A stretch of DNA of 7,347 nt, taken from the IMG/VR virus record IMGVR_UViG_2698536628_000012; one strand, 5' to 3'. This document shows, piece after piece, positions 3,001-6,000 of the stretch (the first letter of the stretch is position 1; every line of letters begins with the position of its first letter). The position numbers were made by a program. Source of the stretch: a virus (Duplodnaviria > Heunggongvirae > Uroviricota > Caudoviricetes).

Positions 3001-6000
3001 CATCGAGATGACCGAAGAGCGCGATGGGTGGCTCAATATTTATAGCGATGATCCAGATGCCTTTGGTCTTCGTGTGAAAGGAGACAGCATGTGGCCCAGA
3101 ATAAAATCAGGAGAATATGTACTCATTGAGCCTAACACCAAAGTATTCCCGGGGGATGAGGTGTTTGTCAGAACTGTTGAAGGACACAACATGATCAAAG
3201 TTCTTGGCTATGACAGAGATGGAGAATACCAATTTACAAGCATCAACCAGGACCACAGGCCAATAACGTTGCCTTATCATCAAGTAGCAAAGGTGGAGTA
3301 TGTGGCTGGTATTCTGAAGCAATCTCGCCATCTGGATGACATCGAGGCAAGGGAGTGGCTGAAAAGTTCGTGACTTCATCGTCACATAGCTGGTAACCAG
3401 TGGCCTGAAGAGACGTTTGGGTGATGTGATAGAGATCATTATTCAATTCGATTGAGAAAAATCATCATAAGGTTTATATCCATTTATTAGATTTTATGTG
3501 TATAAATAGTTAAAAATGCACGATGTAGAGATATTTGTGCTTAACATCAATTAATCATTGCTAAATCGTGCTTATTGTTCAGAAATCGCCCAAGTCATAT
3601 TGAAAATCTGTTGGCGAACACCTATATAAGGAGTATAGTTAGTGACCCAAAACGTATTGCCAATCAACAAGAGCTTGCATGACCGAGCTGTTGATGAATT
3701 TAATCGTCTGCATGGAACAATGATTGGCGAGATTAGTGCAATGCTGAAAACAGCTAAAGTAGCGCCATTGGTGGATCTTCGTAAGAAAGATCCTACCTTT
3801 TCGAACGTTGTCGCAGAATTACGGACATTCAGAGACGTATGTAATGCTCTGCTCCCATACTTTCGTGTAGATAAGACCAGCGAAATCGCTGTCATCGATA
3901 AGTTACTTATACTGGCTAATGACCTGGCTCAAGCCATCGATGCTGACGATCCTGACGCATTGTGCGCAGCAATAGCAGCCCTTGATGTTGAGCCTTACAT
4001 TTAAACGAGGGGAAAAAAAATGACTAAAGCGTTTGACTATACTGCCGTTAGTAAGCTTTTGGCTGAAATGCGCGGATGTGTAGAGCGCGTTCAAAATCTA
4101 CGCCGCGACTTTGAAGCTCACATCAATCATTCACAAAAAGCGGCTTGATACTTAAGTTAGATGACAGAACCCGGCCTCAGCGCCGGGTTTTCTTTGCCTC
4201 ACGATCCCCACACCTAATAACACCTTAACCAATTGTATTTATTGAAAAATTGATAGATACAACTTTCTAAACCACGAAATTCTGATCCCCCTCAAGTCTC
4301 TTCATTCCTTCTGATAAATTCCCGCAATCAAATAAAAAACCATAATAATCAACAGGATATTTGAAAACCCAAACAATTTATCATTTTGCTATTGCCATCA
4401 GTTTATCATTTCGATAAAGTCAACTCATCAGCAGGACGCTGTAAGCCAAACGGAGCAGACTGGCAGGCTCTTTAAACAACGTCGAACACTCGACTACGTG
4501 GCTGAAAAGCCAGATCACCCAACCACATAAGCTGTGGGATGCAATGCCGAAGTAACCGTCTCAGGAGGAGCTTCGAGATTGCATCGCCAAAGTTTATTCG
4601 GGAGGAATCTATGTCCAGAAAAACAGAATTTAAAGGCACCGCAGCTTCTCGCCGTAGAGCTCGTCGCGCAAACCTGCAAAGTCAGGAGGCGATTAGCTCC
4701 GACAAGCTACACAGGCCAACCCCTTCACGAGTGGTCTTGCAATGCAAGCGCAAACCAGCAATGAGAGCAGAAGTTATAACTCTGACAACGTTGACCAGAA
4801 AATATGAAGGTTCAACTTGTCTTCCAAACGTAGCCATTTACGCGGCAGGCTACCGGAAATCAAAACAACTGACAGCGAGGTGACGATCCCCCCCGCCGTA
4901 GAGGAACTAAATTAGCTCATCAGCTTTACCAGCAAAGCGCATATAACACTCATGGAACCAGACGTCAGGTATAACAAATTTCTCTTTACCTGACGCGCTG
5001 TAAGTCACACCTGAGCGATGGAGAAGGCCTTTTCTCATAAGAGATAAAGCGACCGGATCGCCGTGCTTAAGTACGATTTTGTTATTTGCCATAACAGCAA
5101 ATGCTAAAACCTCTTTTTCCTGAATACTCAGAGAATTGAATAGGCGCTCAGTCTCCACAATTACTTTAGCCTCATCTCTCTTACTGAGATATTTTTTATA
5201 TCTGTCTGAAGATGCCAGAAATATAAACTCCATCCCCCTGTTCAGAACATAACTGATACACAAAAGCATTGCGTAATACATCCAGTGATCTGGAAGTATT
5301 TCGGGGTTCCTTATATCTACCCACTCTTTAATTGATGCTGGGGTGATTATTATCAAGGCAATTAAAATAATAAGCATATGAATTAACTGTTGTAGCGTAA
5401 GACCACGCAGGAAGAAACGTAATAGTTCCTGCCACCAGTTACTCATCGGTGAATCTCCATCATTCTCTCTGTAGGGGTGAATAGAGTTTATCCGATTTCT
5501 CGCTGTAGGGGTACACGAGAACCACCGAGCCTGATGTGGTTAAAAGACAGGCATACGAATAAACACTGCACTGTGTATTCATTCCAACGAGTGAATACAC
5601 GGAGCAATGTCGCTCGTAACTAAACAGGAGCCGACTTGTTCTGATTATTGGAAATCTTCTTTGCCCTCCAGTGTGAGGGCAATTTTTTTGACGGAGGATA
5701 TATGAGTGAAGTAACAGATTTAGTTGTTATTGAAAAAGCAAATGCAATGACTGTAATTTAGTCTGCCGACCAGATTGAAGAAATTCTTCAAAAGGTTGAA
5801 CGTGAAGTTATGTCCTTTGTGCCTGATATCACAACGGCAAAGGGCAGAAAGGAGATCGCTTATCTGGCGTATAAAGTTGCGCAGACGAAAACATATCTCG
5901 ATGGTCTTGGCAAAGACCTTGTTGCTGAACTGAAGGAAATTCCAAAGCTAATTGATGCTAACCGCAAGACAGTGCGCGATCGCCTTGATGAACTGAAAGC

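Follow-up and report, generated by a model that had tools for sequence, protein, structure and literature searches.

The window analysed here is a 7,347-nt stretch of IMG/VR record IMGVR_UViG_2698536628_000012 (Caudoviricetes), a lambdoid immunity region that runs in reverse orientation relative to the usual lambda map. Between its cI-type repressor gene and the left operators and promoter (OL/PL) it carries two small open reading frames (ORFs), A and B, which encode proteins of 120 and 42 amino acids (aa). We find that positions 3425-4197 form a cargo cassette (a "moron") that is self-contained, horizontally mobile and carried by temperate phages of Gammaproteobacteria, and that A and B are real, co-inherited genes for small soluble helical proteins under purifying selection. 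Together they are a new uncharacterised protein pair in a known kind of locus. From context and location only, we tentatively infer that A and B may form a lysogen-expressed defence or exclusion pair of a toxin-antitoxin-like kind, in which B would be a ClpXP-labile helix that masks A, and A a non-enzymatic binder.

A mobile cargo cassette in the rexAB slot

When 5,426 complete Escherichia coli genomes were searched with cI plus the DNA from the terminator onward, both flanks were found with the cassette between them in 89 (~1.6%), and many more genomes share the cI or the right flank but have other content between. Over the right flank (the terminator and ~100 nt), identity is 86-89% to lambda prophage DNA beginning 6 nt ahead of the rexB stop codon; in lambda prophages the order is cro (-), cI, rexA, rexB, the matching DNA, N and sieB (-), equal to that of the cassette prophages. 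Given this identity beyond the terminator, the cassette slot is literally the rexAB slot, as a first-pass annotation of the window had proposed. That annotation had also taken the slot for a cargo hotspot, and the differing cargo sets that follow the same or a related cI (Table 1) agree with this. Several of these alternative alleles are themselves uncharacterised. A preprint on HigBAC of lambdoid prophages terms the interval from cI to OL a variable defence locus.

The limits of the cassette are given by Stx1 phage AU5Stx1, whose cI is near-identical and equally long. Homology between the two ends at ~3424, about 50 nt past the cI stop codon, and resumes at ~4168, at the terminator, and thus the unit includes the AT-rich region 5' of ORF A. 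It measures 744 bp from the left boundary to the terminator, or 773 bp with the terminator included, and its two proteins total 162 residues. Across the loci compared, the cassette lies behind at least nine different repressors and is repressor-adjacent in most cases. In Pantoea, it is found at the end of a myovirus-type prophage, beside baseplate and tail-fibre genes and an O-antigen-type acyltransferase gene. Two other loci (L032 and L033) have it beside tail genes, and in Vibrio it is flanked by a collagen-like tail fibre and a large protein of virion type. The proposal that this is a horizontally acquired module is thus borne out by its boundaries, the many repressors, the non-repressor contexts and its own terminator.

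The morons of lambdoid phages, in the sense of Hendrix and colleagues, are promoter-gene-terminator units inserted between backbone genes. The cassette has most of their characteristics: it ends in a terminator of its own, has a promoter-like 5' region that is conserved, is inserted between backbone genes, is present in some related phages and absent from others at the same backbone position, and recurs as the same unit in unrelated contexts. It differs in that its promoter is only predicted and in that its coding G+C content equals that of the backbone (0.446 for the two ORFs vs 0.448 for cI). The AT-richness relative to the flanking genes on which the acquisition argument had partly relied holds for the 5' region but not for the genes, and as an argument for acquired genes it fails because only the 5' region is AT-rich.

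The range of contexts bears on the possibility that the pair is a lysis-lysogeny accessory that tunes repressor stability, induction or the CI/Cro switch. Its probable co-transcription with cI and its place beside a repressor in most loci would suit such a role, and a second role of this kind is reported for lambda RexA (PMC11077077). However, one and the same cassette stands behind at least nine unrelated repressor types, and it also occurs far from any repressor, among the myovirus-type tail and baseplate genes, the Vibrio tail-fibre genes and in L032/L033, which argues against a repressor-specific partner. We consider a role in the lysogeny decision improbable.

The two genes travel together. 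The first set of 32 loci, drawn from IMG/VR with one RefSeq prophage and Proteus phage Pm34, has both genes intact in every case, B directly after A, and the adjacency recurs in every further locus for which downstream DNA was read (Pantoea, Vibrio and Idiomarina). The co-occurrence that had been suggested as a check for cI-N intervals therefore holds in all loci read and extends beyond such intervals. The gap between the genes is 15 nt here and 6-20 nt where the B start codon is clear; in Idiomarina and Vibrio, A is followed by a B-like ORF of 40 and 49 aa, respectively, with gaps of 32-34 nt. Pairwise identities of the A and B proteins correlate across loci (r = 0.89).

Two small helical proteins under purifying selection

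Both ORFs were found exactly as first described. A word-indexed search of 5.8 billion proteins gave 14 relatives of A and 5 of B, and a B profile gave 23, while the A family comprises just 36 clusters in a profile search run exhaustively over 1.84 billion cluster representatives. Members come from Escherichia, Citrobacter, Enterobacter, Pantoea, Hafnia, Yersinia, Proteus, Glaesserella, Idiomarina and Vibrio, and those A members whose length was examined are stand-alone proteins of ~105-180 residues. All named members, and both proteins in RefSeq, are annotated as "hypothetical".

Known families gave no lead to function. Scans of A and B returned no match in Pfam or NCBIfam (E <= 0.1-1) and zero families in PADLOC-DB v2 (E <= 1), and Foldseek found nothing in BFVD at E <= 0.001. 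Sequence searches of the PDB, with single sequences and with profiles, gave only low-scoring designed helical bundles, coiled coils and other helical proteins, and these matches are taken as compositional. No paper on the pair was found by RefSeq accession, PHROG identifier or locus. Neither protein had been recognised at first reading, and the blank Pfam, NCBIfam, PADLOC, PDB and fold searches, together with PHROG families labelled "unknown function", are in accord with that.

Protein A evolves under purifying selection (nonsynonymous divergence, dN, 0.055; synonymous divergence, dS, 1.19; ratio 0.05, against a 91%-identical homologue). Its AlphaFold model (mean predicted local distance difference test, pLDDT, 82) is all-helical, with helices at residues 5-40, 43-47, 53-73, 79-101 and 104-115, and the fold is a generic spectrin-like helical bundle. 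Together with an isoelectric point (pI) of 4.87, this agrees with the earlier description of A as helical and acidic. The family shares the motifs GEISxMLxxAKLxP and NPSF and a C-terminal AAIAALDxKPYI-COOH. Invariant residues of a catalytic type were not found in the family alignment, where conserved positions are mostly hydrophobic, Ala or Pro. Protein A has no transmembrane segment or signal peptide, with a maximum Kyte-Doolittle 19-residue window of 1.22 (threshold ~1.6). A HEPN-like R-x-H motif at residues 22-24 was rejected as unconserved in the family, and an antisense ORF of 107 aa (3572-3895, minus strand) was rejected given that the substitution pattern fits the plus-strand frame.

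Synonymous divergence differs between the genes. Between window positions 3642-4148 and the equivalent stretch of locus L016 (4001-4505), it is saturated in A (dS 1.19) and low in B (dS 0.14). This contrast suggests a recombination breakpoint inside the cassette or, alternatively, an additional nucleotide-level constraint on B.

The acidity of A is a family trait (pI 4.2-6.2, net charge -2 to -20), and A is small and helical like many inhibitor proteins. Both properties would suit an anti-defence pair that neutralises host immunity or a competing element, for instance through protein mimicry by A. However, the acidity is moderate and unlike that of DNA mimics, and the pair is placed in the lysogen-expressed cI operon rather than an early lytic operon, with its own terminator and the structure of a moron. 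We regard an anti-defence function as very improbable.

That the two ORFs are chance or decaying frames has in its favour that their annotation has never gone beyond "hypothetical protein". The conservation data refute it, and its probability is close to nil: A has a dN/dS of 0.05, the pair is intact throughout the first set, both AlphaFold models are confident, and lengths and motifs persist across genera as far apart as Escherichia, Vibrio and Idiomarina.

Protein B is modelled as one helix at residues 7-41 (pLDDT 91). It is amphipathic (hydrophobic moment 1.14 vs 0.57 for shuffles) and has no transmembrane segment (maximum Kyte-Doolittle 19-residue window 0.34, threshold ~1.6). Among 21 distinct B sequences, Asp6, Val10, Leu14 and Cys20 are invariant. 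A "basic amphipathic peptide" is an apt description of B in the window (pI 9.1), but basicity is not a trait of the B family, because net charge is unconserved and the pI of homologues spans 4.5-9.1. A GAGG-type motif precedes B in L023/L027 as it does here.

All 21 distinct B sequences end in Ala-Ala, while the preceding residue varies (KAA, LAA, QAA and SAA), and the distant partners in Idiomarina (SAA) and Vibrio (KAA) share this ending. The N-terminal fragment of LexA, which ends in VAA, is a natural example of an Ala-Ala ClpXP degron, and the invariant Ala-Ala of B resembles a degron of this kind. In E. coli, a terminal Ala-Ala is a critical, necessary-but-not-sufficient determinant of ssrA-like ClpXP C-degrons (PMC10862746). 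A background rate of Ala-Ala C-termini calculated from the fetched loci was discarded because the loci are redundant.

In the window, A and B lie in one reading frame, split by one TAA and five codons (4002-4019). A fusion of the two by stop-codon read-through was considered and rejected: the frames differ in L002 and in L016/L017, and read-through is unlikely because the same-frame arrangement is unconserved in homologous loci.

Terminator and 5' region

A strong intrinsic terminator had been claimed downstream of B, and its folding energy relative to shuffled sequences is in line with that (hairpin at -16.5 kcal/mol, z = -2.78; 1 of 200 shuffles folds as well). A hairpin with a T-tract follows the B stop codon by 8-29 nt in 12 of 13 representative loci, including non-cI contexts. 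The terminator closes the cassette and also the cI transcript. A simple terminator scanner, which missed the hairpin at 4166-4191, reported no terminator-like site from the cI stop codon up to ORF A, so that transcripts from the cI promoters probably read through, as for rexAB.

Several other prophages have, between the cassette terminator and the N-like gene, a convergent ORF of 65-78 aa on the minus strand, an ORF that the window lacks. The one in L034 is a DUF2767 protein, and the kinship of the others was judged by eye only.

The AT-rich 5' region stays upstream of A behind other repressors and also where the neighbours are tail genes, as in L033. It ends in a 43-nt block that hardly varies among 10 cassettes with A proteins 42-97% identical (compared with the equivalent blocks of L016, L022, L023, L028, L030, L032-L034 and L036). 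In the form ATTGaAAA-N5-TTGa-N7-CCtATATAAGGAGTATAGTTA-GTG, the block is near-invariant even in Enterobacterales cassettes with A proteins only 42-55% identical. This promoter and Shine-Dalgarno block (3599-3644 and its equivalents) is better conserved than the coding sequence.

The promoter-like hexamers noted at first reading are present, but they are no more frequent than chance would give (3 found vs 5.6 expected in the promoter scan). Those upstream of A gain credibility because they are conserved in other loci. Transcripts from either promoter candidate would begin no earlier than the Shine-Dalgarno sequence. In L030, an extra 60 nt separate the block from the ATG, and the block includes a perfect TATAAT, which favours a role as promoter or operator. 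Conserved RNA structure was not found in the leader (RNAalifold on 10 leaders, -0.09 kcal/mol, no covarying pair) and Rfam was blank over the cassette; a structured RNA leader or riboswitch was rejected on these grounds, and the constraint on the block therefore acts on DNA or on primary sequence. The TTGAAA-N15-CC(C/T)ATATA in the block recalls the sigma-32 consensus, CTTGAAA-N13-15-CCCCATnT. A candidate LexA box in the leader was rejected by eye, as it reads CTGT-N8-ACCT and not CTGT-N8-ACAG.

Possible functions of the A-B pair

If A and B do form a defence or exclusion pair, its transcription in the lysogen would have two sources, read-through from the cI promoters and the predicted promoter of the cassette, and the pair would be carried for the benefit of the lysogen. 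The B helix would pack onto the A bundle to give an A-B complex, in which B would be the proteolytically unstable partner, with Ala-Ala as an ssrA-like ClpXP degron. The A:B ratio would then report the state of cellular translation and proteolysis, and an infecting phage that upsets this balance would generate free A. We suspect that free A would act through its invariant C-terminal ...ALDxKPYI tail and its helical surface, and that, instead of acting by catalysis, it would attach to a protein of the host or the phage and block it, thereby stopping the infection by abortive infection or exclusion. A binder is favoured over an enzyme because there are no invariant catalytic-type residues and the bundle is of a generic spectrin-like type, and a labile B is favoured because Ala-Ala is invariant while the residues before it vary. 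The suggestion of defence comes from the rexAB-homologous slot, the HigB, PDC-S43 and PDC-M24 alleles, the variable-defence-locus label and the sieB gene nearby.

The closest positional counterpart is lambda rexAB. The two share slot and orientation (cI, two cargo genes, terminator, OL/PL, N and sieB), and both are probably co-transcribed with cI in the lysogen. However, A and B have no Rex homology in Pfam (including any RexA/RexB models), NCBIfam, PADLOC or PHROG, and at 120 and 42 aa they compare with 279 aa for RexA and 144 aa for RexB. RexB is a polytopic membrane protein of the ion-channel type, whereas neither A nor B has a membrane segment and the cassette offers no RexB-like membrane component. 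It is like Rex in location only. HK022 Nun is another exclusion protein encoded downstream of cI, and it acts via an N-terminal arginine-rich RNA-binding motif. Like Nun, A is a small cytoplasmic protein of the cI-to-PL interval, predicted to be expressed from the prophage, but it is acidic and has no arginine-rich N-terminus, with just 3 Lys/Arg in its first 25 residues. The candidate systems PDC-S43 and PDC-M24 are alternative alleles of the same post-cI slot; they show no homology to A or B, and both have candidate status only.

Toxin-antitoxin systems offer a second set of comparisons. As in type II modules, A and B are adjacent, co-directional small genes with a short spacer and a single terminator after B. 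A recognised toxin superfamily or fold was not found in either protein, and helix-turn-helix (HTH), ribbon-helix-helix, AbrB or Phd domains were not detected in profile scans of A or B, the latter being a single helix. In P1 Phd-Doc and similar type II pairs, a small ClpXP-labile antitoxin is paired with a stable helical protein of ~120 aa on a temperate phage, and the cassette likewise pairs a small, putatively labile protein with a helical one of ~120 aa, with ClpXP as the proposed timer. The gene order is reversed, however, a Fic/Doc motif, a Phd fold and homology are absent, and the lability of B is deduced only from its Ala-Ala terminus. HigBAC (E. coli NT1F31; the ST2-8624 allele) is also a multi-protein module, and its slot is the same, after a near-identical cI (99.2% DNA identity, host strain). 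It has three genes rather than two, and A and B are without a HigB, HTH or SecB-like domain; the stability of the HigBAC antitoxin is reported to depend on a SecB-like chaperone.

These parallels raise the question of whether the pair simply stabilises the prophage by addiction (post-segregational killing) and does nothing against other phages. The short spacer within a two-gene operon and the small, putatively ClpXP-labile partner would be in keeping with this, as would the HigB-type toxin-antitoxin module in the same slot of ST2-8624. Against it stand the lack of a known toxin or antitoxin fold and of an autoregulatory DNA-binding domain, and the small gain that an integrated prophage would draw from plasmid-type addiction. 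Moreover, HigBAC in this slot was reported in a paper about phage sensing and abortion. Plain addiction is in our view quite unlikely.

It is also conceivable that A and B are host-fitness or lysogenic-conversion cargo with no link to phage defence, in which the A-B complex would bind a host protein (a stress, envelope, metabolic or virulence regulator) and modulate it to the lysogen's advantage, in the manner of many morons. The moron architecture and lysogen-type placement fit such a function, and the proteins look like binders, not enzymes. The pair in Pantoea adjoins an acyltransferase gene of a classical conversion type, that in L033 adjoins a DinI-like ORF (recognised by eye only), and the E. 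coli carriers are mostly O26/O103-type pathogenic strains and chicken isolates. On the other hand, the post-cI slot that the cassette prefers hosts characterised exclusion or toxin-antitoxin cargos, and signal peptides and membrane segments, which would hint at an envelope role, are absent. We think a host-fitness function unlikely, though it is the most probable of the alternatives to a defence pair. Even with no part in defence, A and B would represent a conserved protein pair, expressed in lysogens, that affects host physiology in Shiga-toxin-associated lineages.

Several points weigh against the defence or exclusion pair that we prefer. Homology evidence for function is absent in Pfam, NCBIfam and PADLOC, and A and B show neither a toxin-like fold or motif nor a DNA-binding antitoxin domain. 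An order with the large gene first and the small, labile partner second is the less common one in type II systems. Guilt by location is a weak argument, as morons in such slots also encode non-defence functions. The correlation between A and B identities fits co-evolution, and it is also expected from linkage alone. Finally, a terminal Ala-Ala is by itself insufficient for degradation, and most B tails have Lys or Pro immediately before it, which were not among the favoured residues (PMC10862746).

A more far-reaching version of the defence proposal is that the pair represents a new ClpXP-timed immunity family. A degron-tagged helix of 42 residues would continuously mask a non-enzymatic bundle effector, and the infection-induced loss of the helix would free the effector, with its invariant C-terminal KPYI tail, to plug an essential machine of host or phage and abort the infection; the promoter block, if responsive to stress or sigma-32, could add a second sensing layer. 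We consider this full scheme unlikely. Each uncharacterised allele in the cI-OL interval is nevertheless a candidate for a new immunity or toxin-antitoxin mechanism, and if the cassette were a defence system it would add a class of very small non-enzymatic effectors and a degron-tagged micro-protein as sensor. Specialists would not be surprised by unknown cargo at such a slot, yet the cassette is compact, conserved and unlike anything described.

Immunity region and neighbouring genes

The order of cI, cassette and OL/PL given by the first-pass annotation is correct, with cI and N assigned by Pfam, OL1-OL3 by alignment and a PL-like promoter by the promoter scan (Table 1). The cI gene has the length and position of RefSeq WP_000428099.1 in loci that are 100% identical over the cassette or over cI. 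As in lambda, sieB directly follows N, and it lies 760 bp from the cassette. Given this SieB homologue, the prophage already has one known exclusion gene besides the cassette.

Table 1. Features of the window, cargo alleles of the rexAB slot and convergent ORFs in related loci
Feature	Position	Strand	Remarks
ren, then P/O replication genes			P/O interrupted by N run at 964-981
cII	1884-2183	-	
cro	2322-2555	-	
cI-type S24 repressor	2669-3373	+	Pfam Peptidase_S24, 3.8e-16; phrog_4, transcriptional repressor
AT-rich 5' region, part of cassette	3425-3641 (217 nt)	+	G+C 0.29; left module boundary ~3425
Conserved 43-nt block	3599-3641	+	ATTGAAAA-N5-TTGg-N7-CCTATATAAGGAGTATAGTTA; from alignment of cassettes
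Sigma-70-like promoter candidate 1	3600-3605 / 3623-3628	+	TTGAAA / TATATA; overlaps candidate 2
Sigma-70-like promoter candidate 2	3611-3616 / 3634-3639	+	TTGGCG / TATAGT; scanner reports TTGGCG-17-TATAGT
Shine-Dalgarno sequence of ORF A	3628-3633	+	AAGGAG; inside conserved block
ORF A	3642-4004	+	GTG start, 120 aa; AAGGAG 8 nt upstream; phrog_13858 (unknown function), 5e-73
Shine-Dalgarno sequence of ORF B	4007-4012	+	GAGGGG; 7 nt before ATG, within the 15-nt A-B spacer; read from sequence
ORF B	4020-4148	+	ATG start, 42 aa; phrog_12503 (unknown function), 2e-26
Intrinsic terminator	4166-4197	+	10-bp G+C-rich hairpin 4166-4175/4182-4191, then TTTTCTTTG; right module boundary
OL3/OL2/OL1 operators	4345-4418	+	Aligned to annotated operators of phage ST2-8624
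PL-like promoter	4392-4420	+	TTGCCA-17-TAAAGT; promoter scan
N antiterminator	4611-4883	+	Pfam N_peptide, 8e-32
SieB superinfection-exclusion homologue	4907-5446	-	Pfam SieB, 1.5e-19; phrog_1301
286-aa Glu/Ala/Lys-rich coiled-coil-like protein	5810-6670	+	phrog_1376, unknown function
Slot allele: 47-aa ORF	L003 3331-3474		Stx1 phage AU5Stx1; near-identical cI
Slot allele: HigB_toxin, HTH protein and 134-aa protein (HigBAC-like)	L046 151-1492		Stx2 phage ST2-8624; near-identical cI
Slot allele: DUF3024 (PADLOC candidate PDC-S43) and two hypothetical genes	L042 3766-5229		Identical cI protein
Slot allele: P63C-domain protein	L043 2972-3883		
Slot allele: DUF6978 and DUF1828 (PADLOC candidate PDC-M24)	L044 2195-3501		
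Convergent ORF	L017 4657-4854	-	
Convergent ORF	L020 4657-4893	-	
Convergent ORF	L029 2182-2391	-	
Convergent ORF	L034 6563-6766	-	

The 286-aa coiled-coil-like protein (L001 11279-12435) is labelled in RefSeq as a TolA-like pseudogene. In the O26:H11 strain FWSEC0001, an IS600 lies just upstream of this pseudogene, an insertion not present in the window.

A run of 18 Ns lies inside the minus-strand ORF 364-1851. This 495-aa ORF is an artificial fusion of O without its C-terminal end and P without its N-terminal ~33 aa; related loci have distinct genes for O (299 aa) and P (233 aa). At 1384-1503, eukaryotic H/ACA snoRNA families of Rfam match weakly, with 27 and 26 bits where the gathering scores are far higher; these matches are almost certainly due to chance, and the position may fall in the repeat-rich ori part of O.

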